DNA of 63,274 bases, filler included, from Globobulimina sp. (taxonomy: Eukaryota), in NCBI GenBank assembly GCA_003354225.1. It is 53 parts of 53 records of this genome, joined end to end, with 100 filler letters (N's around TTAATTAATTAA, not from the genome) between each part and the next. Parts side by side here need not be neighbours in the genome. Positions count along the whole stretch, not along the records: positions 62,180 to 63,274 come from PIVH01023681.1; 52 more parts are not named here. One strand, written 5' to 3'. This document shows, in pieces, positions 5,985-63,274 of the stretch. Below the pieces are notes generated by a model, which was given only the letters and a program-made list of their open reading frames with translations, did no database searches and was not told the origin of the DNA. A program made the position numbers and the translations under genes. Every line of letters begins with the position of its first letter. Positions within the stretch are counted from its first letter, which is position 1.

Positions 5985-7080
5985 TTACCATATATGGTAA
6001 CTGTTACCATATATGGTATGTTACCATATATGGTACATTTACCATATATGGTAACTGTTACCATATATGGTAACATACAGCACTGTGTTACCATATATGG
6101 TAACAGTAACCATATATAGTAACTGTTACCATATATGGTAACTGTTACCATATATGGAAACAGAGCCACTTCTGTTTCCATATATGGTAACAGTTACCAT
6201 ATAAGGTAACAGTTACCAAATAAGGTAACTGTTTCCATATAGGTAAGGTAACTGTTACCATATAAGGTAACTGTTACCATATAAGGAAACGGTCAAAACG
6301 TAATATGCATTTTGGTGATTAAAAAACGTATTCTACCGAGTTTTTAGCTTTTCTAAATCATTTTATGGTATTACAGCCAGTAATTTGCATTTCACTGGTT
6401 AAAAAACGTATTCTACTGAGTCGTGGTACATTTTAATTAAACTTTTTGCCTTAAATAAACTTAGCCTGCAAAAAAGTAAAGCTAATTTAGCGCACTAATT
6501 CTCTCACTCAATCTCTGCAAATATTCATTATATCTTCTTATTATTATCATTATATCTTTTCTCTTAACCATCATCAGTCATCAGTTCCCAGTTGGATTGC
6601 TAAATGCGGTCGGGCTCCCTCTGATCTGACCGGGTACATATGCAACATAATCAAGAGAGAAATAAGCGATGTTTTAACAAATATTTGACAAGCTTCTTGT
6701 TTGAAAAGTTCTTTGATTGAAGATTGAAATCGACGCAACGCCCCAGTTGCTGGTTATTTCGTCACTCAGTCAGTCTGTACATTATGTACATACTGTCAAC
6801 TGTCAACTGTAGCAGACCACAGATGACAGAAAAACACACTTATAGACTCTCGGATACAACATGAAGTAATAGTTATTACTGAATAATATTGTGTAAATGG
6901 TCACTGCGATGGAAAGAACAATGGAAAAATGATTTAGAAAAGCTAAAAACTCGGTAGAATACGTTTTTTAACCACCAAAATGCATATTACGTTTTGACCG
7001 TTTCCTTATATGGTAACAGTTACCATATAAGGTAACAGTTACCATATATGGTAACAGTTACCTAATATGGTAACAGTTAC
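5985..7080. mobile_element. Foldback-type element: inverted arms built of a 19-bp palindromic satellite plus an ~85-bp unique inverted segment
   Basis: (GTAACTGTTACCATATATG)n at 5985-6290 and 7005-7080; 6281-6364 is the reverse complement of 6926-7009; ~560-bp non-coding core. Confidence 0.8.
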
Positions 7081-8750: not shown

Positions 8751-9269
8751 ATGTCCAAAAACAATAATAAAGCAATTAGTAATAAAGCAGTTTATGATTC
8801 GAAAGCGGTGATTCCATTTTCATCGAAAAGTGTTGCGAAAGCCCGGTATGATCCGATGGTGAAATTAGAAGAAATGAATCAAGTCTTGCAAGAAGATGTA
8901 GATTTATTGGAGGCAGCTTGCGAAGATAAAGATGATGAAATGATGGATTTAGAACAAGAATTGGATGATGCGAATGCAGACCGGGATGAATTAAATAAGC
9001 AGATTAGTGTATTAAAGGAGGAACATTTGGATGTCATCATGGATATTCATATGGCATCGGAAGAATATGAGGATGAGGTGGTGCATGTATTAGATAATGA
9101 TGCGTTGCAGATTCAGGCGTTAAAAAATAAAATTAAAATGTATGCGCAATATGCCGCCTTGAAAGATGATGCATTTCAAGCGAAGAAAGTGGAGTTAAAA
9201 AAGGTGAAAGAGAAAGTTGCTGCGCGTCAACATATTCATTGTATTCGTGTTTATAATGATTATAAATGA
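8751..9269 (+). CDS. Intronless acidic coiled-coil protein
   Basis: Complete ATG-TGA ORF with heptad-like L/E/K/D-rich sequence. Confidence 0.7.
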   Translation: MSKNNNKAISNKAVYDSKAVIPFSSKSVAKARYDPMVKLEEMNQVLQEDVDLLEAACEDKDDEMMDLEQELDDANADRDELNKQISVLKEEHLDVIMDIHMASEEYEDEVVHVLDNDALQIQALKNKIKMYAQYAALKDDAFQAKKVELKKVKEKVAARQHIHCIRVYNDYK

Positions 9270-9587
9270 CTACTTAAATTTGTTTATAAATATTGCATAT
9301 TAATAAGTAAATTTGTACCATATAAATAATAATAATTTCTTTATCTATTTTCTCTTAATTATTTATTAGTATTTGTCTATTAATTATTGGTTTTGATTTT
9401 GATTTGTCGCGTATAAAATTAATTAGTTTGTATATTTCTTTTTGATTTGTCAATTAAATTGATTAATTTTGTNNNNNNNNNNNNNNNNNNNNNNNNNNNN
9501 NNNNNNNNNNNNNNNNTTAATTAATTAANNNNNNNNNNNNNNNNNNNNNNNNNNNNNNNNNNNNNNNNNNNNTATATACTGTATAAC

Positions 9588-10133
9588 TTGTTTTGTTTTT
9601 ATATATTTAGATTAACAGATAAAGCATGTTTAGTGTTGGATAAATATATATATGGCCGTGGACGGGAAGTTACTATGGATAAAGCTATTTGGTATAAATG
9701 TATTACGTTTAGTGATAATAATGACAATGACAATGACCATGACAATGAGGATATAATCTCATCCACATTTGCAACATCATCATCGCAAGCAACTAATGAG
9801 GGCCATGGATTGGCAGCAAATTCAAATAAAAATGAAGCAAATCCATTGTGGTGGCTATGGTTATTGATATTGATAATATTTATTTTCCTTTTAATTATAT
9901 TATTTTTTGTTGGAAAGAGATATATGAATAATAAGCCTCAACGAATGGATGTTGCGATTTCCAGTGCATACTATGACTATGATGCGGACAATGAAATTCT
10001 CAATGAAGGCGATATGGAAACAACTGCACAAATTGAACAATGGAATATGGACACAAATACAATTGAAATGGAAAATACATTTAATGATAAAACAGAGACA
10101 GAGACAGTGATAATGTCGTCGTTTGTTGAGTAA
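9588..10133 (+). CDS. Single-pass membrane protein, C-terminal part
   Basis: Strong TM segment LWWLWLLILIIFIFLLIILFFVG followed by KR and an acidic tail. Confidence 0.7.
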   Translation: MFCFYIFRLTDKACLVLDKYIYGRGREVTMDKAIWYKCITFSDNNDNDNDHDNEDIISSTFATSSSQATNEGHGLAANSNKNEANPLWWLWLLILIIFIFLLIILFFVGKRYMNNKPQRMDVAISSAYYDYDADNEILNEGDMETTAQIEQWNMDTNTIEMENTFNDKTETETVIMSSFVE

Positions 10134-10202
10134 ATCTTTAAATTGTGATAATTGTATAATTTTAATCTTATTTAAATGTTTGTGATTGAGTGATAAAAAT
10201 AA

Positions 10203-10560
10203 AGTGATTCCATGACCAATTTTGTGTCGCTAATTGTAACCCCAAAAAACGTAAATAAATTGACATATGCTGCCTTATTTAGAGAAACACAAAAACACAT
10301 TATTGACAACAAAATCATTCTTTGGAAAATAAAGTCACATACTGATTACTGAACCCGAACAGCGAGTGTATAATCAAATAGCTGACAGATTAGCGACGCT
10401 CGGAAGAATGCATCCCAAAAACAACAATCTCATAATCCCCAGCATAAACTCCACACATTATGCCATCTACAAATCGTTCGATATCCCTTATGGATCCAGC
10501 GATGGATCCTTGTTAAACCTCAAGGGGATGTTCCAGCAATCCGTGAGCCTGGAATCATAA
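10203..10560 (+). pseudogene. Retroelement-type RNase H fragment with a frameshift
   Basis: Reads SDSMTN...KIILWKIKSH, then in another frame TEPEQRVYNQIADRLA. A 7-nt ACTGATT duplication-like insertion at ~10341-10347 explains the shift. Confidence 0.75.
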
Positions 10561-10978
10561 ATATTTTCGTTTTCTAACTAAGAAAGTTTTCTCCTAATTT
10601 TATATATGGAAACGTTTTGTATATGAATTGCAGAAATGACTTGGGAAAAGAAAAATCGAAATTTTTTANNNNNNNNNNNNNNNNNNNNNNNNNNNNNNNN
10701 NNNNNNNNNNNNTTAATTAATTAANNNNNNNNNNNNNNNNNNNNNNNNNNNNNNNNNNNNNNNNNNNNGTTTATGAAAGACGCATTTTGATCAATTTATA
10801 AAATAAATACTTTTTATTACCGGCGATAAAACAGCATTCTACAAATATTTTACTTACAAATTTCTCGCTAACTTTTATTTAATTCAAAAAATCCAACATG
10901 CGACTGGTAATAGGTAATCTATATAATTCTCGCTAACTTTTCTATTAGAGAGTACTTTTGACATAATCAGTTGAACCA

Positions 10979-11614
10979 TTAGTAACTATTTGACATAATC
11001 TTTAAAATTGTAGAGGGAAGTGGTAGAGAATTTATGTTATAGTCACATATCCCGATTATTCTGTCGGAACATAAGGAGAAAAGTGTCTTGTCCAATATAG
11101 TTACGCCATTGGTAGCATCGTCATTTTCAAGGGAAATTGATACCCATAATGTGGCAGGAAAGGGTTTTCCATCGAGCGGATACTTGATTTCTTTGAACTG
11201 TTTCGTAATTGGGTTATTTATAGAATAGCATAGTATAATGCAACTTTCAAACGGTCTAATGGCCAGTAATGGATGAGGGGTCCATCGATATTCGAAATAT
11301 GCCATTGTGACATGATGGGGGTATTTAGACTCTGGTAGCAAAATGGTTGCACATTTGTGAACCCCACCCGGAATTTTAAGGGTAGGGTCATGACTTGATA
11401 AAGAGAGGCATATTTGAGAACTTTCAATGTCGAAATGTAAAGACTGCTCGGCTCTAATTGGTCTATTTACAGGAACCGAATGCCATTTCCTCCTATATTT
11501 TGATAATGTTGGAACTAATTTAGCACGAGATCCATCAGAATTTAGCATTATATCACAACTTTTGCCATCTTCCGCAAATCGAAACAACAAATTGTTTGAC
11601 ATGACTGGAAACAA
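10979..11614 (-). CDS. Intronless protein with a Neuralized (NHR)-like domain and a C-terminal SOCS box
   Basis: C-terminus TLFSLCSDRII...INSLPLPSTIL fits BC box + cullin box; NRPIRAEQ..LSLSSHDP and LWVSISL resemble NHR motifs. Confidence 0.6.
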   Translation of the reverse strand: MFPVMSNNLLFRFAEDGKSCDIMLNSDGSRAKLVPTLSKYRRKWHSVPVNRPIRAEQSLHFDIESSQICLSLSSHDPTLKIPGGVHKCATILLPESKYPHHVTMAYFEYRWTPHPLLAIRPFESCIILCYSINNPITKQFKEIKYPLDGKPFPATLWVSISLENDDATNGVTILDKTLFSLCSDRIIGICDYNINSLPLPSTILKIMSNSY

Positions 11615-11995
11615 AATCGTTTGAGCACATTATATACTCGAAGATCACATTGTTTCTGCATGATTCTTCAAAACAGATCACGCATCTTTTGGATGACACT
11701 ATATTATACAGAATTTCGTCTCGCTCGTCATTTGTAGCAAATGTTGCGGTGTCGCGACGTTGTCCAGATTAGTACCGGGGGCGCCTTTTCGGAGCTAATT
11801 TTCGACCATGAGTGCGCAGAATCGTAGTTAGCCTGTTTCGCCGCCATCTTTCACTGGGCTTGAANNNNNNNNNNNNNNNNNNNNNNNNNNNNNNNNNNNN
11901 NNNNNNNNTTAATTAATTAANNNNNNNNNNNNNNNNNNNNNNNNNNNNNNNNNNNNNNNNNNNNTCTTTAGCAATTGCATTACCAGCTTTAAATG

Positions 11996-12777
11996 CTACT
12001 TCAAGGCGCTGCGTATCTGCTTCATATAAAAATATTGCAAGTTTGCAATCGCTTCAATCTCTTGCTTAAAAACCAAATATTCCTTATCCGATATCCATCC
12101 TTCATCGCCTCCAATTAATCTCCCATACGGATCAAATTCGCGTGCAATGCCAACATAATAGTTTTCAAATCCGCGCCATACATACAGTTGTTCTGCGCGT
12201 GGCACTCGCAAAATTTCCAGATATTTCTTGTCCGCCACATCATACACAATGTCATGCACACTTAAATACTGCGGCTGCTGCACCGACCGCGCCATAAACC
12301 ATCTACTAAATGCGACATAGTCGCAATGCCGTAGTTGGCATTCAATTGCAACCTCTTCAACATCTCCGCCCAATATAGTACTTAGGCTACGAGGATAAAA
12401 GCCTATATATTGTATATTATATATATATATATATCATATCAAAAGTGATGTGGATATATTCTATCTGGTAAACCAAACCATTCCACATCGATAAAATAAT
12501 CCTGTCCCTTTTTAACAGGTGCCACCCAATAAATTGCTTGTAAATGCGTCGGCTCTTCGTATTTGGCTTTCTTCTTTGCTTTTCCCTTTGCGTTCGCCTT
12601 TGCTTTCGCCTTTGCTTTCGCCTTTGCTTTTGCTTCAGCTTTTGATGGCTTTGGCAATCTATATCGCTTTAATAACTTCACAGCGACCTTAATCTTGCCA
12701 TGACATCGACGTTTGTCCCAATTGATCGCTATTTGTTGACTTTTAGGCTTTCTAGGCCTTAAATGATAAGTTGACAT
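11996..12777 (-). CDS. Two-exon basic protein with a (KA)n tract; predicted intron 12403-12473
   Basis: A 71-nt GT...AG intron joins both track ORFs in frame (EWFG|FYPRSLSTILGGDVEE). Confidence 0.6.
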
Positions 12778-13012
12778 TTTTGAGTAAGATTGAGTAAGAT
12801 TGGAAATTTAAAATTCTGTACTGAGTTGAAATCATAATGGCAAACAAAAAAAAAAGGTACGTAGTAATAGCCTATGATATTATTCGATCATGTACCAAAT
12901 ATAAAGTTGATAGTGCAAGGTTATGGTATAGCTGGAATTTGTCAGAAATTAGTCAATCCTATTGCACAAATCTCAAATTAAGGTTCGAGTGTAAAGGTGA
13001 CATGCTTTTGAT

Positions 13013-13044
13013 TGTTTAAGCTCCGAACTTAATTGGCAGTAGTC
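13013..13044. repeat. Dispersed ~32-bp repeat, copy 2
   Basis: Matches 4870-4901. Confidence 0.85.
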
Positions 13045-13505
13045 AATTGAAGAAATGAACNNNNNNNNNNNNNNNNNNNNNNNNNNNNNNNNNNNNNNNN
13101 NNNNTTAATTAATTAANNNNNNNNNNNNNNNNNNNNNNNNNNNNNNNNNNNNNNNNNNNNTGATTTTTTTATTGTATACCGAGTCTAAAGAAGAAGCTGC
13201 AAAATATGGATCTACACTATCTTTTGGAATATATCGTAATAACATTCAACTTCAAAACACTAAGAAATCAATGATATAAAGAAGCAGTATTTAACGTAAG
13301 AGAAATATTCGGTATACATGACGGGGGAGCGCGGGCCGGGAGTTATCTGAATATATCGTTCAACGCTAAAGAAACACTAATATTTATGACTAATAGTTTA
13401 ACAAACAACACACACAAAACAATTCAAAAAAATAAATGGCAATGCATAACAACTGACATACTATATATATTTCATTTGTTCTGCATAAAACACCAAGAAA
13501 CTAAA

Positions 13506-14256
13506 TTAAATGGATGAAAAAAGATTAATTTCTTGAATCCATTGCGCCAACTCCTTTTTATTCGGACATGCAAATTTCCACACTCTTGTATCAGTATGCA
13601 ATTCTAATCCAAATTCCTTATTTTTGCCGAACGACGCCCTTTTTGTTTTTCTCATTGATTTTACATTTAATGTGGTTATCGGATTTTTATTTCCTTTGTT
13701 CTCATAATAACTCATTTCGCCCTTCATATTCAATGTAAAATACCTTTTTCTCCATGTTTTAAACATGCCGCCTTCTTTCAGCATAAATCCAGATTTGACC
13801 AACATACCATGTTCTTGGTTCATTCGCGTCATTGATTTATAAACAGCCAAACGGTTTGATGTTCTTTCAACAACCTCATCATAGCCAGCGCCCCAACCAT
13901 CATATCGAACTTCCAATTGATCCACATTCATATTAATAACTTTGCCGTTGCACCATACGCCAGAATCATTACGTTTGCAGTCCAATTGATCTCCGCCACA
14001 TAGCCCTTCTCTCCACATTGACATTTTCGGTTTTCTTCTCTGATGATTTTCTTTTGATTCCTCATCGCCTGAACCATTGAATGATGATTCTGACCCATCC
14101 AAATCATCGCTATCTGCATCACTAATCTCCTCAATATACAATACCCCATCATTTGCGCCATTGTTTTGAATCAGTTTCTCTTTTAATTCTTTGACACTCG
14201 ATCTGCTTCGTTCTAATTCGCAATTTAAATATCGAACTTCTTTTTGTATTTCAAAC
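13506..14256 (-). CDS. Protein with a Tudor/Agenet-like module and a C-terminal PH domain (partial)
   Basis: VKSGFMLKEGGMFKTWRKRYF...ELAQWIQEI (PH); LDC...WCNGKV...VRYDGW...YDE (Royal-family-like). Confidence 0.85.
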
Positions 14257-20336: not shown

Positions 20337-20396
20337 GATGGGCAATCCGTTGACAAAGATAACCAGATCGGGTCGACGGTTTATCTTCGTTCCCTG
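20337..20396 (-). CDS. hsdR: Bacterial type I restriction enzyme R subunit fragment fused to AT-rich DNA
   Basis: QGTKINRRPDLVIFVNGLPI is the HsdR nuclease-domain signature. Confidence 0.8.
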
Positions 20397-21195
20397 ATAT
20401 CGACCATTACCGCAAACAGATAAAGGAAATCGATATATTGTATCTATGATTGATAAATATTCGAGATTGAAATGCAATGACCCCGCAAATTGATTGCATT
20501 ACTACACCAATCCACTGCAAAATATTCGCATTATGCGAATTTGCGTTAAAATATAATAATATCCATATGATCCATCAGCAAAAATTATTAACAATGTTTT
20601 ATTACTGTAAAATTGTAGCGATGCAAAAATACGATTACTCATTGTAGCTGTGCTAATAGTAGCCTAAATACCACACTTGAGAGTAAAAGATGCCTAGTCT
20701 TAATCAAGTAACGTATGGACCATTAATTATTAGCCCAAATATTGTTCCCTGAAAATGACATTCTAGCATGCATCCTACTTGGTGATGATTGGGATTTGGA
20801 CCCAAATCTTCTTTGATAAGATGCTCTTCTTGAGCTATCATCACATATTATTTGGATACCAATAATCAGAAATTTATAGAAAATTCTATGGATTTGCATT
20901 ACATAATATTGATGAAGACTGTGTCTTGAAAGAGGCGATTGTGACTTTGTAATAGCTACCATTGTTTTACTTGAAAAGTTTTTGATTGTTTAACTTAAAT
21001 CTTTCTTTACCTAAACTCTGTCTTTGTGAGAACCCACATAAGCGAGATTACAATATATAACCGCCTTAATATATGACGGGATTCTTTCTCATTATCGCCG
21101 CCTTAATATATAGTTCTGGGGATTTCGCCCATTTATGTGCTCAAATAATTAGTTCTGGTGATTTCACCAGTTTGCGTTCCATTCCATTCCATTCC

Positions 21196-21272
21196 TCTCA
21201 CCGTAGGATTCGAACCTACATCCAATTGGTCTGCCATTCAAACCAATGCTCTGCCAATTGAGCTAGGTGACC
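21196..21272 (-). ncRNA. tRNA-like element 1 (A and B boxes, extended 9-bp anticodon-arm stem, no canonical anticodon)
   Basis: TCACC-TAGCTCAATTGGCAGAGC-ATTGGTTTG/AATGG/CAGACCAAT-TGGAT-GTAGG/TTCGAAT/CCTAC-GGTGA. Confidence 0.8.
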
Positions 21273-21275
21273 ATT

Positions 21276-21379
21276 TTTTGGAAGAAAATAGGTTAATAAT
21301 AAAATGTTAATGATTCCCGATGAAACACAACCTTTAAGAATTCAATTTTGACTTTCAATGTTTTTATTTTGAATAATCT
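21276..21379 (-). repeat. Dispersed ~105-bp repeat directly upstream of tRNA-like element 1; second copy at 57401-57505
   Basis: The reverse complement aligns almost base for base with 57401-57505. Confidence 0.9.
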
Positions 21380-21704
21380 GTAAAAAACTGTAAATTCAAA
21401 GAGTTTACAGTAAAAAACAGTAATTTCAAACTNNNNNNNNNNNNNNNNNNNNNNNNNNNNNNNNNNNNNNNNNNNNTTAATTAATTAANNNNNNNNNNNN
21501 NNNNNNNNNNNNNNNNNNNNNNNNNNNNNNNNTTTCCAACCCTTTTATGATTACTGAAAGTCTGAAACATAAAGTGCATTCGGAGCAACTAGATTACGGT
21601 TTATTTATAAATTATAATGGTACACATGTCAAGTTTTATGCTTATTTGCGCATAATAAATTATACGTTGTTGTTTCATATAATTATTAACATCTTCGAAT
21701 GAAG

Positions 21705-29904: not shown

Positions 29905-31000
29905 TGTTAGAAACTGTAGCACTCCATACATCCATACAGATATTATTAGTGTCATTCATGCGTTCCATTATTATATTTTATTGATATTATATTCTATTGG
30001 AGAGAATACAGAGGGACAACAAGGTAATGGAGGAAATGAAGATATTGAACAAATAACAAAAATAAAAACATTTGAAAAAGAAATAAAAAATATTGTTACT
30101 TGTGGTGAAGCAGCATATATTTTATTTGATGATGAAACATATGAATGCTGTGGCGATAATAGAAGGGGTGTATTAGGTGTTGGGCATTATAATAATATTA
30201 ATATATGGCATCAAACAAAAGATATGAAAATAAAAAATATATTTTCAGCACCAAACGGATCAGAACATTCATTTTGTATTTCAAATGAGAATAAATTATA
30301 TGCTGTCGGATGGAATTATAATAATCAATTTGGTATAAAAACAAATCAATATACTAATTATAATAATAAATGGATGCCAATTAATACAACATTATCGATC
30401 CAAAAAGTAGCCACAGCAGCGGGATATACAACATTTTTAAGTGGTGATAATGGTAAAATATATGTTGCTGGTTATGATGATGAAGATGGTGGTTTAGGAT
30501 TAGGGGAAGATATTGAATCATCGCCAAATATTCAAGAAATTCAAATAAAAATAAAATTTAAGGATATATCTTGTGGCTGTTCTCATACCTTAGCAATTGA
30601 TGATAATTATGGTGTTTGGTCGTGGGGATATGGTAAACGAGGTAGTTTAGGTCATGGCGATGATAATAATAGATATTCACCAACAAGAATACAATATTTT
30701 ATTCAAAACAATATTAAAATTGGTAAAATATGTTGTGGCTATTCACATAATATATTATTATCATTAAATAACAAAGTTTTGATCTGTTTAGTTATTTTTA
30801 TATAGAAGTGGGACAAATATATTTAATAAATAAATAAGATATATTGTTTTGGAAGGAATAAGGAGTATCAATGTGGCAATGGTTCAAATGAAACTGTTGT
30901 ATATTTACCACAACCAAATGAAACATTAAAAAAGGAAACAATTATTGATATTAAATGTGGTGCGTCTCATAATATTGTTAAAACAGCGGATAACAAATAT
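29905..31000 (+). CDS. RCC1/BLIP-II repeat protein (partial, with an intron near 30776-30838)
   Basis: ISCGCSHTLA...VWSWGYG..GSLGHG repeats. Confidence 0.93.
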
Positions 31001-31112: not shown

Positions 31113-32196
31113 ATGCATCAAATTATTTCGTCGCAAACAATTAAAGATAAAAATAATAATAAATCCATAAAAATCCGCAAAAGTATTATAAAAAACACCC
31201 ATCAAAACAACAATTTCTTTGATAAATTACCGAATGAATGCATTGATAAAATGTGTGATTATTTGCGAAATGACGAGATAAAAAATTTTAAATTAGCATC
31301 AAGACAAATTGCTATAATTTGTTTACAGCAAATGAATAAAATTACCATTGGGATAATTAATGCAAATTCAGTTCTTAATAAAACATATATTGATTTAAAA
31401 AAAATGATTAAATTTTCCAGACATACACCAATGAAAAGATTTCATTCATTACAACAAGAATGGAGTCAGCAGTTTAATATTTCCGTTGAAAATCAGTTAA
31501 TATTTGAAATCGATTGGATTCATCGCAAATTTACATACAATCGATTGGATACAAATAATGTTTATATTGCATTACATACAATCGACAGAGCAGCATATTT
31601 GATGATCGATAGACGAAATATTATAATTTTTAGTAAGCACAAAATCCGAAAATACGATATTGAATGTGATACATTCAAATCTTTAAAAAATTATAAATTA
31701 ATGATATTGGAATATTTAGATATTATGAGTCAACAAATAGTAACAGCACAATTTATTTTATATGAAGAAAATATCACATTTGAAGAATTATTTATATATT
31801 AAATATAAATGGATTCGAATTGATAATATTAAACATGAATGGCTCTTGGAATTAAACCATTGTTTAAAACGAATGAGTTCAGATCCGTATAATACAGAAT
31901 TGTGTTTTTATATTCATAAATGGAAAGGAATGGTGGGGCCAATTAGAAATATGAAAGATTCACCAAAATGTAATGAATATACATTTCAGATAAATCACAG
32001 ACATCCACGGATACAATTAAATGAATCAATGAATAGAAGCTATATGGCACCAAATTATGACAATGTAGGAGGAAGTGGAGGATATTCCCCATTGAATGAT
32101 GATATTTTAATGAGAAATTATTTTTCATCGTCATCCAATCCAGAATTATCAGAATCATCTTATGATTCATCATCGTCATATGTTACATATATGTCA
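31113..32196 (+). CDS. F-box-like protein with a frameshift near 31800
   Basis: FFDKLPNECIDKMCDYL...FKLASR; the reading frame continues in overlapping ORF 31762. Confidence 0.6.
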
Positions 32197-37981: not shown

Positions 37982-38406
37982 TGTGCAAGCGTGTGCAAGG
38001 ATAATACTGTTTTTATTATTTTAAATTCAATATACATCATCATGTACAAACATAATATTACTATTCATACAACAATACTTCAAAACTTTAAGAATTCATT
38101 TATAGTTAGCAATGGTCCTTCATTACTAGTTATGGAATTTTTGTGTAACAATGGCTCATTGTTACCGGTGCCAGTTNNNNNNNNNNNNNNNNNNNNNNNN
38201 NNNNNNNNNNNNNNNNNNNNTTAATTAATTAANNNNNNNNNNNNNNNNNNNNNNNNNNNNNNNNNNNNNNNNNNNNATTATTTTTTTATCTTTGTCCTGG
38301 GTTCGGACTTTTTTATATTATGCATTTCTTTAACTTTAATTGTGTGTTTGTCTATTTTTTAGTGTGGAACTTCATGTTTTTTCTAATTTAATTTACAAAA
38401 CTCAAA

Positions 38407-38448
38407 CGTGTTCGTAAAGGTCATAGTTTCGACCGAAACGTCACAACG
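38407..38448 (+). ncRNA. Minimal type I hammerhead ribozyme-like motif with a variant core
   Basis: CGTGT-[TCGTAAA]-GGTC/ATAGTTTC/GACC-GAAA-CG-TC^-ACAACG; predicted cleavage after C38442. Confidence 0.6.
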
Positions 38449-38567
38449 ATTCAAATACTCTCGACCTCAGTGGTCTGAATCTCTATATCAGTCGCAAGAT
38501 CCTGTCATTTATACGTCGTTATATTGATAGTATTTTACAAAACCATATACTTAATTATATTCTTAAT

Positions 38568-39098
38568 ATGGGACGAAGACCTACGCATTGTAGGGAATCA
38601 AAAGTATTCAGGCATAAGCTAACAATCAGACACTTCGACGGTTCATTTATTAGAGGCTATGGTTACAGTACTTTGGTATTCCCACACAATGAAGAAATAA
38701 AAGATACATTTTGGAAGAACCCAGGCAAATTTGATAATAATTGGAGGGATTTATTAGGTAACTTACAAAATTGGCACCTCGCTCAATATTATTATAGCTG
38801 TAAATCATTCATTGCCAAAACAAAGCAGCTATCTTTTCTGGAAGTCATCAAAGGGCATAAATTGATACCGAGCGGATTAAAAATCAAAACCAGAGTGAAT
38901 GGCATCTATCGAAATAGAGACATATTTTTACAAAATCAGATTATCGGACAGTGCCAAAGAAAATTATTAAATATGAGAATAGCATCATTACGCCGGAAAT
39001 TGAGAATGTTACACAATGAAAATATACCATTTCATTGGAATAATATCTGCAAATTCTATATGAAATCTTTGTTTTGTTATAACATTTTCAAATATTAA
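38568..39098 (+). CDS. Basic 176-aa protein resembling the N-terminal domain of Penelope-like element ORFs
   Basis: LSFLEVIKGHKLIPSGLKIK followed by a helical R/L-rich stretch; no RT or GIY-YIG domain present. Confidence 0.55.
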   Translation: MGRRPTHCRESKVFRHKLTIRHFDGSFIRGYGYSTLVFPHNEEIKDTFWKNPGKFDNNWRDLLGNLQNWHLAQYYYSCKSFIAKTKQLSFLEVIKGHKLIPSGLKIKTRVNGIYRNRDIFLQNQIIGQCQRKLLNMRIASLRRKLRMLHNENIPFHWNNICKFYMKSLFCYNIFKY

Positions 39099-39633
39099 CG
39101 GAGATTTCTTCTCTTTTAATGTATAGATACTTTCTCTCTTTTTATTTGTGAATATTTTTGTCAAAACTTTGTTTTATAAAATTGTTCGAATTCTATTTTT
39201 TGTTTATAGGGAGTTTTATTTTTGTTTTTTATGTCGAAAGATCCCTGATTTTTATTATTTTTTTATCTTTGTCCTGGGTTCGGACTTTTTTATATTATGC
39301 ATTTCTTTAACTTTAATTGTGTGTTTGTCTATTTTTTAGTGTGGAACTTCATGTTTTTTCTAATTTAATTTANNNNNNNNNNNNNNNNNNNNNNNNNNNN
39401 NNNNNNNNNNNNNNNNTTAATTAATTAANNNNNNNNNNNNNNNNNNNNNNNNNNNNNNNNNNNNNNNNNNNNAACACCACATTCTCCATCATTCATTGCA
39501 TTCATATTATTCTTTCGGACTTTGCTTTCTTCTCTGATTTGGATGATGAAAAACCAAAATCAAACGATCCGTTTTTTAGCACTACGGTTTTCTTTTTTCA
39601 ACAGGTTTTTTTATTTAAACTAGTTTTTGTAGC

Positions 39634-40568
39634 ATGGGACAGTGTTGCAAACCTGTGCTGCCAGAGTCTGAGCAGAGTGTTTCCAACGCGAATACGGATT
39701 ATACTGCCAGGAAAAGACGCTCCCAATTATTAGTCAGTGGATATGTTAGAAATTGTAGCACTCCATACATCCATACAGATATTATTAGTATCATTCATGC
39801 GTTCCATTATTATATTTTATTGCTATTATATTCTATTGGTGCGAATGGAAAGGGACAACAAGGCAATGGAGGAAATCGACATATTAAACAAATAACAAAA
39901 ATAAAAATATTTGAAAAAGAAATAAAAAATATTGTTACTTGTGGAGAAGCAGCATATATTTTATTTGATGATGAAACATATGAATGCTGTGGGTATAATA
40001 GAAGGGGTGTATTAGGTGCTGGGCATTATAATAATATCAATATATGGCATCAAATAAAAGATATGAAAATAAAAAATATATTTTCAGCACCAAACAGATC
40101 AAAACATTCATTTTGTATTTCAAATGAGAATAAATTATACGCTGTCGGATGGAATAAGTATAATCAGTTTGGTATAGAAACAAATGAACAAAACAATAAT
40201 AAATGGACACCAATTAATACAACATTATCGATTCAAAAAGTAGCCACAGCAGGGCGATATACAACATTTTTAAGTACAAATGCTAAAATATACGTTGCTG
40301 GCGCTGATGATGGTTTTGGTGGTTTAGGATTAGGAAAAGATATTAATTCATCACCAAATATTCAAGAAATTCAAATAAAAATAAAATTTAAGGATATATA
40401 TTGTGGATGTCATCATACCTTAGCAATTGATGAAAATTATGGTGTTTGGGCGTGGGGATATGGTAAATGTGGTAGTTTAGGCCATGGAGATGCTAATAAT
40501 AGATATTCACCAACAAGAATACAATATTTTATTCAAAACAATATTAAAATTGGTAAAATATGTTGTGG
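39634..40568 (+). CDS. RCC1/BLIP-II repeat protein with an N-terminal acylation motif (close paralog of 29905-31000)
   Basis: MGQCC start, LLVSGYVR...IISIIHAFHY motif and RCC1 repeats. Confidence 0.93.
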
Positions 40569-44154: not shown

Positions 44155-45046
44155 NNNNNNNNNNNNNNNNNNNNNNNNNNNNNNNNNNNNNNNNNNNNTT
44201 AATTAATTAANNNNNNNNNNNNNNNNNNNNNNNNNNNNNNNNNNNNNNNNNNNNCTGATCTTATCAAACACCTTGCAAAGCGTCTCTATGCCAGTCTCAC
44301 ATCGTAATCTATTGATGGCATTATTGTTAGTATCGCGCAAAATAAATATTATATATTATATATTGAATATATAAATACCAATAATTGTGTATTTACATTG
44401 CAAATAATCTTCAATATTGTCGCTAGTTTGCGGGCGAATATTGTGCCGATAGGCGGTGAATAAACATATTTTTAAAAATGAATTTAGAAAAGGAATTGAG
44501 TGGCAATCCACAGCCACAATCACCCAAAAACGATTAAAAAACGAATATTATTTGTATTAATATTATCTGCAAATTACCTCTGTGGATCGCACAGCATTCG
44601 GCTATGATGATCAGGAAAAAAAGAAGATAATGAAAACGACTTCGAATGTGATATAAATGAATGTTTTTTGACGCAAAGAAATAATCGAAATAAATCGAAA
44701 AAGAGCAAGTATAATAATAAACGGAATGAGATATTTTTTATTGACTCGAATGAGTATTTTATTGTTTAGGATATTTCGAGTATCATCAATCCAATATTTT
44801 ATTGTTTGTGGGGGATGAAAATGAGGCAAATAAAAAATGGATTTGATGGTTATTATACCATCACAAAACAATACAAACACGCAAAATATGTTTATTATAA
44901 TGGAATTTGATGGAATTTGATGGCTGTTTACCATCATAAGACTTTTAACGCGTCGACTGACTTTGTACTGAAGTTATCGAACTGAATGAAAAAAAGTAAG
45001 CTGTTTGAAAAGTTTTTTTAAAAATCAGTACTTATCGGACACCCCT

Positions 45047-45100
45047 ATTGGTTTGATTGGATCACAAACCAAATGGATGTAGGTTCGAATCCTACGGTGA
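45047..45100 (+). ncRNA. tRNA-like element 2 (5'-truncated; same subfamily as element 1)
   Basis: TTGGTTTG/ATTGGATCA/CAAACCAA-ATGGAT-GTAGG/TTCGAAT/CCTAC-GGTGA. Confidence 0.75.
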
Positions 45101-45182
45101 TGAGATGGAATGGATATGGTTTAATGGATTTAATTATTATTTGATTAAACAAGAGCCTCTGCTATGACACGCAAGCTCAGAA

Positions 45183-45293
45183 TATTAAAAGCAAATGCCG
45201 TCACGTATTAAGGCGGCGAAAATTAAAAGCAATGCCGTCACATATTAAGGCGGCGGATATTAAAAGCAAAGCCGTCACATATTAAGGCGGCGG
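45183..45293 (+). repeat. Three tandem ~37-bp units, each with a GCCGTC...GGCGGC hairpin; homologous units at 21061-21110 (minus strand)
   Basis: ATTAAAAGCAA(A)TGCCGTCAC(A/G)TATTAAGGCGGCG x3. Confidence 0.9.
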
Positions 45294-45449
45294 AATCAAA
45301 TTAATTATTTAGAATATAACGTGAAAATGCAGCATATCAAACTGCATCTNNNNNNNNNNNNNNNNNNNNNNNNNNNNNNNNNNNNNNNNNNNNTTAATTA
45401 ATTAANNNNNNNNNNNNNNNNNNNNNNNNNNNNNNNNNNNNNNNNNNNN

Positions 45450-48362: not shown

Positions 48363-48838
48363 ATATGGAGAATGTGAATAACTTATTACATATTTTAAAT
48401 CGTTATAAATCCAGAAACATTTTAATCAATGCGAATAAATCCGATATTGATATCAATAATTTATTGCAGAATATTGGTGAAAATATGTCATTAAATGTGG
48501 GTAAATTCGGCGATATAATCTCTTGTATCAACATGTCGATGCATAGTAAATTATTATTATTGCTATCTTTAAAACAAATCATTGCCAAAAAGAACTCAAA
48601 TAATGAACAAACAAAACCAAATTCAATACAATAACAAATACACAGAATAATGATAAAAACAACATACAAATACACAAAATATAGCACAAAATATACAAAA
48701 TAAATAAGCAAATTTAAAATAAAACACAGAATAAAAATAAAATAAGATACAAAACGGAAAGAAATTATCCTTGCCCAAACACAATACGCCAAAGAGATCA
48801 CATATAAAATATAACACAAACCTGGAGGGCTATCGCCA

Positions 48839-48906
48839 GTGCAACAACAGGATTTGAACCTGTATCCCTGGCGATCGCCAGTGCTCTATATTTGAGCTAT
48901 GTGCAC
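48839..48906 (-). ncRNA. tRNA-like element 3 (anticodon arm is the palindrome CTGGCGATCGCCAG)
   Basis: GTGCACA-TA-GCTC/AAATATA/GAGC-A-CTGGCGATCGCCAG-GGAT-ACAGG/TTCAAAT/CCTGT-TGTTGCAC. Confidence 0.8.
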
Positions 48907-53265: not shown

Positions 53266-53328
53266 GTGATGATAGCTCATTGAGAGCATCTTATTAAATA
53301 AGATTTGGGTTCAAATCCCAACCATCCT
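53266..53328 (+). ncRNA. tRNA-like element 4
   Basis: GTGATGA-TA-GCTC/ATTGA/GAGC-A-TCTTAT/TAA/ATAAGA-T-TTGGG/TTCAAAT/CCCAA-CCATCCT; T6 run at 53341. Confidence 0.75.
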
Positions 53329-53817
53329 GGGTTCAAATAGTTTTTTCTCTGGTACAAAGGGAAAAAAACTGTCTTTGCTGAGTTCAACTCCGTGAGGACT
53401 TTATCATCTTTTCAATGTTGTTTCCAAGGTCTAGGGTGGGTCCTCGTACTTAGCCTAATGATTTAGAAACTTACTTTTGCAGAATAGAAACGGGCCGGTG
53501 GCAAACTTTAACAAGAAGAAACCAAATTGAATTCTATCGAAGATCGATACATACGAGTTGTATGTCAATAGGTATAGATAATTATACATTGTCAATGCAA
53601 AACTAAAAATATAACGGAATTAAATTTGTGTTTATACAAAAGTGATCCTTTAGGTTTTTGTGATGTGTATACAATGACTGTGACTCAGGGAACATCCCCA
53701 AAACAGAATCAAAANNNNNNNNNNNNNNNNNNNNNNNNNNNNNNNNNNNNNNNNNNNNTTAATTAATTAANNNNNNNNNNNNNNNNNNNNNNNNNNNNNN
53801 NNNNNNNNNNNNNNAAA

Positions 53818-54733: not shown

Positions 54734-55099
54734 CGTGATGAATTAACAAAATCATTTGACTTTTTAGGCTTAAACTTCTAAACACTTCTTTTGTGATTGG
54801 CAAGGTTTTTGGGTTAGCTAGAGTGGTTTTCAACCAAGTATTCGAAGTTGACCTAGGATTCGAACCACTGTTGCTGTAGTGTTGCATCATCAGTTAACGA
54901 GTCACGTCCNNNNNNNNNNNNNNNNNNNNNNNNNNNNNNNNNNNNNNNNNNNNTTAATTAATTAANNNNNNNNNNNNNNNNNNNNNNNNNNNNNNNNNNN
55001 NNNNNNNNNCAATTTACAGATATTTTTATCTATGATTTTGATTCGCGAAAATGGATTACTTCCAATAAGAAACTGCCGCAAGCAAATAGGGAGTTTTCA

Positions 55100-58594: not shown

Positions 58595-59689
58595 CGTGTG
58601 TATTGTATCAATCAGATGGATTCTAAAAGGAAAGACTTCAATTCTTCGAATTGACAAAGTTAGAAATTACCAAATTTTCACTTTTTGGAAAAGTTGGTCA
58701 CAAGTTTCTATTTTGTTTATTATGTGATTTAAAGAATATATTTTGTTGTGTTGAGTGATATAGATAGCTATGCAAACCATTTAAATCAGTTTCAGTAACA
58801 GCAGATTTTGTAAAGTTAAGGTTGCCATGATGTCTGGTCTCCGTTTTTGTATTTAACGATATATACAGATATTTAATCAAAACCAATGCAATATGTCCCA
58901 TGAATAATAATGAAAAGATAAATAATTTATTTCTAAATGTTGCATTTTATCCTCATTATGGCAGTTGTATCAAATTATCTCTTTTGTGCTGACAACTCAA
59001 ATATTCATCTCTCTCTCAATGAATCCTCAAATTCATCTTTCTTGTATATAGCTATGGCAATCGCCATCAAATTTAACGAATAATTATAAATGATATCACA
59101 TATAGATTATAGAGCTGGAATAGCTACACAGTCTAAATAAAACAACACCAAAATTTGCAATTGATATATATCGATATCACAATCAATATCATATTATCGA
59201 TCGATATACCATTGCGTATAAGTTGATACGGCTCTGTAACCATAGTAGTTTTTGCCTTAAGATGCCCGTCAAATTAATGTGATTCACAAATAACATAAAC
59301 CAATTAATACACCAATACAGTATACTGCTTCATGTGATTTGCCATAGAAATAAATTCCATTTATCTTTTCATTATTATTCATGGGAGATATTGCATTGGT
59401 TTTGATTAAATATCTGTATATATATCGTCAAATACAAAAACGGAGACCAGACATCATGGCAACCTTAACTTTACAAAATCTGCTGTTACTGAAACTGATT
59501 TAGATGGTTAGTATAGCTATCTATATCACTCAACACAACAAAATATATTCTTTAACTCACATAATAAACCAAATAGAAACTTGTGACCAACTTTTCCAAA
59601 AAGTGAAAATTTGGTAATTTCTAACTTTGTCAATTCGAAGAATTGAAGTCTTTCCTTTTAGAATCCATCTGATTGATACAATACACACG
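58595..59689. mobile_element. Long imperfect inverted repeat (arms 58595-58935 and 59345-59689) around a ~410-bp non-coding core
   Basis: The contig ends are reverse complements over ~340 bp with scattered substitutions and indels. Confidence 0.85.
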
Positions 59690-62079: not shown

Positions 62080-62649
62080 NNNNNNNNNNNNNNNNNNNNN
62101 NNNNNNNNNNNNNNNNNNNNNNNTTAATTAATTAANNNNNNNNNNNNNNNNNNNNNNNNNNNNNNNNNNNNNNNNNNNNCTGCATAAATAATGGCAACAA
62201 AGACGCGCAGAAATATGATGAGTTTGTGCAGTTTGCGGTGAATAATGACACCGACTGCTCATCAATTTGTTCATTCTGATGCTGCCGTCTCAAATGCCGG
62301 AGTTGATCCAGAAAAAACATATCCATTATTTGCGCAATCAGCTGCATCTCGACGACGCAAAAACGACTATGTCTACAAACACATCCTCAAAATCATCAAA
62401 GTCTGTATCAACACCTTTCACGCCATCAAGCATCAATAATTAATGTTATTTTAGTATATTTATTCTGTGACATTTGGCGTATTATGCGGTGCCATATGGC
62501 TTATTATGCTGCGCCAATTCTATCCATTATACCAGCAAATTTATAAAAACATTTTATTATAAAACAATAGTAAAATTAATGTATTTTATCATGGAATAAC
62601 GTATTTTGATTCAACGTATTTTGATTCCATTAATTTTCTATCAGATTTT

Positions 62650-62713
62650 GTGATGATAGCTTAAGTAAAGCATCTAATTACAGAAAATTTGGGTTCAAAT
62701 CCCAATCATCACA
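62650..62713 (+). ncRNA. tRNA-like element 5 (perfect 7-bp acceptor stem, shrunken anticodon arm, followed by TTTT)
   Basis: GTGATGA-TA-GCTT/AAGTA/AAGC-A-TCT/AATTAC/AGA-AAAT-TTGGG/TTCAAAT/CCCAA-TCATCAC-A-TTTT. Confidence 0.8.
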
Positions 62714-62864
62714 TTTTATTATTATCATACAAAAAAAACTATTTTTTGTTTGTGTTTCTGTTTCTGTCGTAGCACTTGTGCGAGGAGAGATATCTGACAG
62801 TTAACAAACTAAAACAAACAAAAAAAATAAATTAAAATTATGGTAATTATATTAATCAGTTTAC

Positions 62865-63110
62865 CGTGGTGATCACCACGTAATTTTTTTCCTTTTTTTT
62901 TCTCAATATTTTTTCGCTTTTTCTATTCAGCTGCGGTGAGAACCACCACTTAATTCCCCTTCTTTCTTTTTCAATTTTTTCCTTCAATAACCACCACTTA
63001 AATCAATTTTTCATCCGTTTGGTGGTGTTGTATCACCACAGAATCCATTTTTCTCTATTCCAATTTTAATCCGTTTCAATGGTGGTGTTGTATCACCACA
63101 ATATCCATTT
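62865..63110. repeat. Cluster of GTGGTG...CACCAC hairpins and palindromes
   Basis: CGTGGTGATCACCACG (62865-62880); GTGGTGTTGTATCACCAC at 63022-63039 and 63082-63099. Confidence 0.85.
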
Positions 63111-63152
63111 TTTCATTCCATAAAATCCAAATCCCATTACATGATGAGTTGC

Positions 63153-63218
63153 TGTCGCCACAGGATTCGAACCTGTATCTTCTGGATTGATCCAGTGCTC
63201 TGCTTGAGCTATGCGACC
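63153..63218 (-). ncRNA. tRNA-like element 6 (4-nt anticodon loop; same subfamily as element 3)
   Basis: GGTCGCA-TA-GCTC/AAGCA/GAGC-A-CTGGA/TCAA/TCCAG-AAGAT-ACAGG/TTCGAAT/CCTGT-GGCGACA. Confidence 0.8.
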
Positions 63219-63274
63219 ATTTCTGTTGCATTTACCATTTACCATTTTTTTATGTGGAGGTTTATTTTGCAAAT

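Follow-up and report, generated by a model that had tools for sequence, protein, structure and literature searches.

What are the small elements shaped like transfer RNA (tRNA) that recur on contigs of Globobulimina sp., and in particular the one at positions 62650-62713 of the DNA considered here? The window (the whole stretch of 63,274 nt, taken from assembly GCA_003354225.1) comprises 53 contigs of 1,095-1,097 nt joined by spacers of the form N44-TTAATTAATTAA-N44; the contig bases total 58,074, with a G+C content of about 31%. Its long intron-free open reading frames (ORFs) encode eukaryotic domains recognised by Pfam (G-alpha, protein kinases, RCC1, MBOAT, thiolase, DNA ligase, Prim-Pol and spermine synthase). 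The element at 62650-62713 is most likely a copy of a mobile module resembling a short interspersed nuclear element (SINE), and not a working tRNA. The elements as a whole read, on a modest balance of the evidence, as tRNA-derived, SINE-like modules of the RNA polymerase III (Pol III) type; we infer transcription by Pol III and retroposition, and with them mobility and the loss of decoding ability, from the DNA alone.

How many such elements are there? An earlier note on this DNA had listed six, all of which were recovered in place. A seventh (e7 in Table 1), absent from that note and from the Rfam-filtered hits, emerged from an all-against-all blastn comparison of the contigs, which brings the count to seven (e1-e7) in the 58,074 contig bases, roughly one per 8 kb. 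The gathering score of the Rfam tRNA model (RF00005, 29 bits) is reached by four of the seven window copies: 62650-62713 (e5; 49.8 bits, E 1.2e-7), 21198-21270 (e1; 41.7), 63152-63218 (e6; 39.7) and 48839-48905 (e3; 37.6). The copy at 53266-53329 (e4) falls slightly under it with 27.3 bits, and e7 and e2 went unreported in the search of the window. The B-box word GGTTCRAATCC, allowing at most one mismatch, occurs 11 times in the window against 1.71 expected, a count reached by none of 100 shuffles; the elements hold seven of these matches, exact in six copies and with one mismatch in e7. Every complete copy also contains TAGCTCAA..GAGC. Internal Pol III promoter words are thus present as judged by sequence match, the A box in the D arm and the B box in the T arm. 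Six of the elements fold as cloverleaves whose minimum free energies (MFE) give z-scores of -2.39 to -4.45, with -17.1 kcal/mol and z -3.77 for e5.

The elements fall into three related families, A (e5, e4, e7), B (e1, e2) and C (e3, e6), so that the three subfamilies with retained cloverleaf proposed earlier are borne out. The stems quoted for them are correct (T stems GTAGG/CCTAC, ACAGG/CCTGT and TTGGG/CCCAA; D stems GCTC/GAGC and GCTT/AAGC), as is the remark that most D loops lack GG, which among the window elements is found only in e1. Family A is 64 nt long, with the acceptor GTGATGA/TCATCAC, a 4-bp D stem, a 5-nt D loop without GG and the T arm TTGGG-TTCAAAT-CCCAA. It has no variable loop and only 16-17 nt in the anticodon-arm region, where a tRNA has about 22. 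Here the Rfam model draws a 3-bp stem; RNAfold and the mitochondrial mode of ARAGORN draw ATCTT/7-nt loop/AAGAT with U33 and A37, an arm that requires nucleotide 26 to pair with the lone variable base. The description of the elements as anticodon-less, never combining a 5-bp stem with a 7-nt loop, therefore stands for families B and C and fails for family A, to which e5 itself belongs: the form is seen in e4, in e7 and in the family consensus.

In e5, two of the five ATCTT/AAGAT pairs are broken. Contigs of four public runs were placed on 62560-63274 (715 nt) at no less than 80% likeness; such contigs give no transcripts, ends or strand, and their depth, a sum over contigs and not a copy number, is used as an order of magnitude only. 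All variants of e5 with a share of at least 10% lie in the anticodon arm (62676 A>T, 2,094/4,981; 62681 C>A, 6,028/6,947; 62686 A>G, 9,475/14,659). The common form is therefore ATCT(T/A)-ATTAAAG-AAGAT and e5 is the deviant, a slightly decayed copy of the 5-bp/7-nt family A form.

Family B has an acceptor of 4-5 bp and a canonical D loop, and its anticodon arm is replaced by an 8-bp hairpin whose loop is 5 or 9 nt long; e2 matches the e1 type (21196-21272) at 85% over 75 nt (blastn). Family C carries a palindromic hairpin, with a 4-nt loop in e3 and e6, and a normal variable loop; across its copies the loop in the anticodon region ranges from 4 to 13 nt. No length variant of the e6 loop at 10% or more is listed in run X1, and the short loop is therefore a trait of family C. 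An assembly or library artefact behind the GATC-containing palindromic hairpins was considered and rejected: the palindromy ends at 5-7 bp, and the same forms occur in independent assemblies and runs. Model R2, built for family C with e3 in its seed, scores e3 at 63.2 bits. Two derived traits unite families A and C, the 5-nt D loop AAGNA and the AAGAT before the T stem, and families A and C1 keep a complete 7-bp acceptor including its 3' strand. A/C-rich tails of the CCCAAACAAA type follow the family C copies L165, L176, L177 and L178, in which the T stem reads TCAGG/CCTGA; for subfamily C2 a SINE-like order of head, body and tail is suggested.

Could such molecules decode? Standard ARAGORN finds one of the seven window copies, e1, as Phe(gaa) with an oversized loop. 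Its mitochondrial mode calls a tRNA in 10 of 10 family A copies tested (e4, e5, e7 and seven metagenome copies), e7 as Leu(caa), with the anticodons taa, tac, caa, tga, cga and tca. Across 15 aligned copies of the one family A body the triplets are TAA (six), TGA (four) and CGA, CAA, TCA, TAC and TAT (one each), and TAA dominates in the run contigs through the C>A variant at 62681. The series CGA to TGA or CAA to TAA resembles decay of the single CpG that the family A consensus contains, and argues against decoding; one family A body does not carry one anticodon identity. None of families A, B and C has a canonical anticodon arm bordered by nucleotide 26 and by a variable loop of 4 nt or more. 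Nor is the G18-G19/T54-Psi55-C56 elbow complete, GG being confined to the D loops of family B while families A and C have 5-7-nt loops without it; in family A, e7 and L171-L175 have TCC or TCT in the T loop, and L172-L174 have lost C56.

Further copies, 31 in all, came from public contigs. A scan of metagenome contigs with the 3' 24-mer of e5 gave seven loci (L001-L007), all of which score 45.6-50.5 bits with RF00005, and a scan of prokaryote genome contigs gave two loci on short contigs of a metagenome-assembled genome, G001, whose record is titled Gammaproteobacteria. G001 contains many contigs of 0.5-2.8 kb at about 30% G+C that share repeats with the window and bear eukaryote-type tRNA genes; these short contigs look like host DNA binned with a bacterium. 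Searches of G001 with the Rfam tRNA model, a family A model (R1) and R2, in which 150 of 218, 5,734 and 461 candidates were scored respectively, yielded at least eight copies of family A, eight of C (L155 and L163 being the same sequence), four of B and two of a further type, D. Canonical genes for tRNA-Ala(CGC) and tRNA-Leu(UAA) lie on contigs of the same kind; their D loops have GG and their anticodon loops 7 nt. Real tRNAs in this genome are therefore ordinary and the elements a separate class. An origin from these particular genes was rejected, as the Ala and Leu genes are unlike the modules. The available part of the Astrammina paper mentions ordinary tRNA genes only. Viral contigs gave no match to the 3' half of family A. 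The 20-nt T arm of family C was tried as a clue to origin and discarded as a common tRNA word, since it occurs on more than 117 phage contigs, where ARAGORN calls ordinary tRNAs of many identities, Ile(tat) being the most frequent (25).

Type D is a fourth tRNA-like kind, seen on two short G001 contigs (L158 1070-1268 and L162 636-829, both on the minus strand). All seven acceptor pairs of GACTCAG/CTGAGTC form, the D loop lacks GG and the T loop reads TTTAAAT. The anticodon loop is of the Cys(GCA) type; after it, in the position of canonical introns, comes an insert of about 127 nt, in part conserved between the two copies. With introns allowed, ARAGORN calls the L158 copy only, not L162.

The modules are dispersed among unrelated flanks at high copy number. 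Homology between the element-bearing contigs of the window is restricted to 58-75 nt (blastn), and the contigs are unrelated, as the earlier note put it, outside repeats only, for several of the flanks are themselves repeats. In run X1, 229 contigs were placed on 62560-63274 (71 at 99% likeness or more, 52 at 95-99%, 75 at 90-95% and 31 below 90%). The summed depth reaches 28,465 and 19,893 on the 3' half of e5, 3,346 on its 5' half and 9,045-13,930 on e6, against about 3-28 in non-repeat flanking bins. Pieces covering e5 begin at 62645-62649 and stop at 62714-62723, and their loose ends differ. All four runs have contigs that pile up on e5, and in some runs parts of the 715 nt are uncovered. 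The families of e5 and e6 are both present, with other flanks, in run X5, which bears another organism label and comes from another study. These figures point to roughly 10^3 copies per family, in agreement with the density in the window, and the three families together appear to have about a thousand copies or more in the genome; the very high copy number supposed earlier seems correct.

Rather than free-standing units of 63-77 nt, the elements are modules within longer repeats. Family B heads a SINE-like unit of about 550 nt. In L160 (815-1365) the head is followed by (GGAAT)n, two direct repeats of about 40 nt, GCCGTCA..GGCGGCG hairpin units, six in number, and finally the tail (ATTAG)4; window 21278-21061, which takes in e1 and the stretch after it, matches L160 810-1035 at 85% identity over 227 nt (blastn). 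The proposal that the elements are SINE heads therefore fits family B, and family A, which has no such body or tail, does not conform to it. A composite element with a B head and an A tail, suggested by contig 20337-21432, is not general, L160 having no family A copy after B. The flank directly 5' of e2 (44974-45047) is itself a repeat, 82% alike to L169 405-478 in inverted orientation, and this homology stops exactly at the 5' border of e2. In family C, a 3' extension links e3 to further copies (L154 539-652 against window 48908-48804, 77% over 116 nt by blastn), and pieces of run contigs covering 63114-63198 and 63115-63188 include part of the extension of e6. Other copies share this extension, which leads into the repeat units at 62860-63110. 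These units, with depths of 88-672 in parts in run X1 and present also in X3 and X5, are probably the body of the e6 unit.

Family A behaves differently. Of 18 copies, 13 have a TTTT run no more than 15 nt downstream of the acceptor end, the background being 0.135 (binomial p 2e-8, several of the copies sharing flanks and hence not all independent). The downstream flank of e5 (62718-62800) has a summed depth of 229-479 in run X1, against the 3-28 of non-repeat bins, and e5 with this flank matches copies of the L008/L153 type at 86% over 123 nt (blastn). Five of the 18 copies (L171-L175) form the 3' end of arrays of 40-50-nt units, at least 6-10 in tandem, each with a GGCGGCGAAGCCGCC GC hairpin or its GGCGAC..GTCGCC variant; the GGCGGCGAAGCCGCC hairpin is also seen as a loose end in run X3 contigs. 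Four of them (L171-L174) share in addition 100-330 nt 5' of the array and a T-rich 3' stretch, making up a repeat of at least 1 kb, here called repeat X, with 84-92% identity between copies and conserved unique flanks.

Is the cloverleaf kept by selection? Across families, in 16 related sequences fitted to R2, both members have changed in 12 of 20 pairs; pairing holds in 89.7% of cells, compared with 73.3% in shuffles (none of 500 reaching the observed value) and 31-46% in slid controls. The T stem is paired in all 16 sequences and six of the seven acceptor pairs covary. Selection at the level of lineages on a tRNA-like transcript fold would explain this covariation, which could also partly reflect descent of the families from different tRNA genes, although A and C have derived traits in common. 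Family A by itself (11 copies) has 96.1% of its cells paired, and seven of the nine unpaired cells lie in the anticodon stem; a single pair of 21, 13-22, covaries (C-G to U-A in four of the 11), in a sample of which eight copies were picked by an exact 22-24-nt 3' word that fixes the T arm and the 3' acceptor strand. Covariation is present between families and almost lacking within family A. Among nine family A copies not picked by an exact word, variable columns are 7 of 42 in stems and 12 of 22 in loops (p 0.003), and among the four repeat-X copies 0 of 42 and 6 of 22 (p 0.001). Single copies decay: the 3' acceptor strand is lost in e4 and two anticodon-stem pairs in e5, the D arm is disrupted in L164 and C72 is changed to A in L157. 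The copies e7 and L157, probably alleles or paralogues, differ at 4 of 64 positions in the element and at about 7 of 89 columns in the flank (derived from 94.04% identity over 151 nt). The broken stems and these similar rates count against constraint on resident copies.

How might such modules arise and persist? As SINE-like elements, they would be parts of non-autonomous repeat units in an AT-rich eukaryotic nuclear genome, whose source copies would rely on the internal A and B boxes for transcription by Pol III. The transcript would have to adopt a tRNA-like fold, with acceptor, D and T stems, for stability, processing or copying, so that propagating lineages would keep the stems through compensatory changes. 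The anticodon arm, having no role, could shrink, become a palindromic hairpin or take up inserts, and after insertion single copies would decay neutrally. Family A would carry its own TTTT terminator, and some copies end a minisatellite of GC hairpins. The 5'-truncated copy e2, the simple-repeat and A/C-rich tails and the decay of single copies all support this SINE-like reading.

Several observations weigh against it. No consistent target-site duplications, one of the checks called for, were found in 16 copies searched for direct repeats, which gave only short AT-rich matches. No partner among the long interspersed nuclear elements and no reverse-transcriptase gene turned up, although no search was aimed at them; no reverse-transcriptase domain is present among the 36 window ORFs scanned, a small sample. 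Family A, with no body or A-rich tail and a T run directly 3', is gene-like and unlike a classic SINE, and the five array-linked copies stand at the 3' end, not the 5' end, of the longer repeat. Homology often stops exactly at the module borders, on either side, and shuffling at the DNA level explains such breaks equally well. The depth figures, being sums over contigs, measure abundance loosely. Finally, the repeat-X stems are invariant (0 of 42 columns) where the flank of L171-L174 varies in 47 of 292 (p 0.0016; with three copies, 10 of 100, p 0.034), and these copies have the T loop TCT for TTC, which is expected to weaken the B box. The figures hint at constraint on resident copies, beyond the source genes.

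The first alternative is that the modules are functional tRNA mimics, serving as targets of RNase P and RNase Z in processing punctuation or 3'-end signals for repeat transcripts, in the way mascRNA serves MALAT1, or as a source of small tRNA-like RNAs, with purifying selection on the four stems of resident copies. The complete acceptor of families A and C1 speaks for it, as a SINE head that was a promoter only would have no need of the 3' strand, and so do the covarying acceptor pairs, the stems of repeat X kept despite an altered B-box core, the position of family A at the end of a hairpin array and before a T run, and a reduced anticodon arm such as that of mascRNA. Some 10^3 copies per family and the decay of single copies fit selfish amplification better, however, e7 and L157 diverge about equally in element and flank, and the stem-versus-flank tests involve three or four related copies; we regard functional mimicry as unlikely. 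In its boldest form, it would mean that a foraminifer-like nuclear genome holds thousands of compact cloverleaves whose anticodon arm was lost or replaced by cargo hairpins (4 nt to about 127 nt) and which are cut out by RNase P/Z, a picture that we offer as tentative and, on present evidence, doubtful.

Alternatively, tRNA pseudogenes may have spread at the DNA level, by satellite or minisatellite expansion, segmental duplication or ectopic recombination and with no RNA intermediate, in the manner of tRNA-linked short tandem repeat arrays. The tandem arrays ending in L171-L175 and the repeat of at least 1 kb around L171-L174 would follow directly, as would the minisatellites held by B and C units (L160 and window 62860-63110) and the failure to find target-site duplications in the 16 copies. 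Flank homology that stops at the module borders on either side is also expected; L001, L005 and L007 have the upstream flank in common, L003 and L004 the downstream one. Duplication alone can hardly explain flanks that, at a scale of 64-70 nt, are unrelated to either side of most copies, nor does it account for the truncated e2 or the simple-repeat and A-rich tails; covarying stems, moreover, imply selection on an RNA or single-strand fold. Spread at the DNA level is quite improbable. That family A consists of working compact decoding tRNAs, for instance nuclear genes for tRNAs imported into mitochondria, is very improbable, for although the mitochondrial-mode calls, the terminator-like T run and, if the source is retarian, the report that Retarian mitochondrial genomes have no tRNA genes (PMC10127745) would suit it, a single body with at least seven triplets dominated by TAA, no variable loop, G18G19 or nucleotide 26, C56 lost in L172-L174 and about a thousand or more copies beside ordinary tRNA genes do not.

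Table 1. The tRNA-shaped elements of the window and the repeat features that adjoin them.
Feature	Position	Strand	Description
e7, family A	20781..20844	-	5-bp stem ATCTT/AAGAT, 7-nt loop AUCAAAG, T loop TCCAAAT; z -4.45
Family B body after e1	21056..21194	-	(GGAAT)3 at 21179-21195, conserved stretch, CCGTCA..TATTAAGGCGG hairpin repeats
e1, family B head	21195..21272	-	5-bp acceptor, GG in D loop, 8-bp hairpin with 5-nt loop, T arm GTAGG-TTCGAAT-CCTAC; z -3.45
e2, 5'-truncated family B copy	45047..45100	+	Begins in the anticodon-arm hairpin: 8-bp stem, 9-nt loop
Family B body after e2	45101..45296	+	Degenerate (GGAAT)-type run, three GCCGTCAC..GGCGGCG hairpin repeats
3' extension of e3	48804..48837	-	About 35 nt common to family C copies L154 and L155
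e3, family C	48838..48906	-	Acceptor GTGCACA/TGT(T)GCAC with one bulge, hairpin CTGGC-GATC-GCCAG, T arm ACAGG-TTCAAAT-CCTGT; z -3.64
e4, family A	53266..53329	+	3' acceptor strand decayed, T loop partly duplicated downstream; 27.3 bits, z -2.39
e5, family A	62650..62713	+	7-bp acceptor GTGATGA/TCATCAC, D stem GCTT/AAGC with 5-nt loop, T arm TTGGG-TTCAAAT-CCCAA, discriminator A
TTTT run	62714..62717	+	Immediately 3' of the e5 discriminator base; Pol III terminator-like by sequence
T/GT-rich, then A-rich stretch 3' of e5	62718..62800	+	Common to a family A subfamily (L008/L153)
Repeat units of about 60 nt with GTGGTG..CACCAC hairpins	62860..63110		Between e5 and e6; multi-copy, also in L007
3' extension of e6	63112..63151	-	ATGGA/GGAAT-like words; depth 2,159, 738 and 10 in successive bins
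e6, family C	63152..63218	-	Hairpin CTGGA-TCAA-TCCAG, variable loop AAGAT, T arm ACAGG-TTCGAAT-CCTGT; z -4.40

Some candidates and neighbouring features of the window do not belong to these families. The R1 candidate at 32096-32174 (21.2 bits) is a coding-like, GAT/ATC-rich sequence and not an element, the R1 matches at 5986-6208 lie within a palindromic satellite, and the B-box match at 54856 has no tRNA context. Contig 5985-7080 is a satellite of palindromic TACCATATATGGTA-type units with many weak matches to microRNA families, far below gathering scores. An inverted-repeat hairpin of about 200 nt at 884-1086 scores 69.5 bits with the plant MIR8007 model, against a gathering score of 195, and is probably a foldback repeat. 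Two contigs have repeated ends, 38277-39372 with identical (100%) 119-nt direct repeats and 58595-59689 with 345-nt inverted repeats (96.8%). The RCC1-repeat ORFs on 29905-30738 and 39744-40568, with 91% identity over 834 nt, are paralogues or alleles.

How do the modules compare with known systems? 'Simple' SINEs, such as the rodent ID elements, consist of a tRNA-related head and a tail. The modules resemble tRNA-derived SINEs in their A- and B-box-like words, high copy number, unrelated flanks, diagnostic subfamilies, truncated copy, tails (in B and part of C) and decay. They differ in the full 7-bp acceptor with a covarying 3' strand in A and C1, in the T run and the missing variable loop, body and A-rich tail of family A, in the hairpins, from 4-nt loops to inserts of about 127 nt, that replace the anticodon arm, and in the associated GC-hairpin minisatellites. 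The mascRNA/MALAT1 modules (PMC8457004) offer another parallel, with a cloverleaf of about 60 nt, a reduced anticodon arm and a position at the 3' end of a longer unit, as in family A after the array; RNase P and Z substrates would be expected in both cases. They are, however, confined to one or two loci, whereas thousands of copies are concerned here, and no upstream triple-helix element was seen.

In Entamoeba, tRNA genes lie in arrays with short tandem repeats (PMC3079666), an arrangement that resembles the joining of tRNA-type units to tandem repeats of tens of bases. Entamoeba has canonical, functional tRNAs in units that are tandemly repeated as a whole, whereas the modules are non-canonical and mostly dispersed, 5 of 18 family A copies adjoining an array. 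Reduced mitochondrial-type tRNAs and their nuclear lookalikes (PMC7722341, PMC2797822) share with family A the short D loop without GG, the compact form and detection in the mitochondrial mode of ARAGORN only. The modules differ in having a canonical T arm, in lacking the variable loop and not an arm, and in a copy number larger by orders of magnitude. A literature search that rested partly on titles and abstracts and did not extend to paywalled papers and supplements found no description of SINE-like or tRNA-like repeat families in foraminifera.

If the modules are indeed SINE-like, they would be the first such families described for a poorly known protist lineage, and would explain why its assemblies break into contigs of 1 kb. 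The tRNA annotation of such genomes would be swamped by copies that Rfam passes and standard ARAGORN rejects. Among tRNA-derived repeats the modules are unusual: many compensatory changes have preserved the whole cloverleaf, the 3' acceptor strand with it, whereas the anticodon arm has been dropped or serves as a site of insertion. They offer a naturally occurring test of what the tRNA fold must retain for Pol III transcription, processing and propagation, as opposed to decoding.

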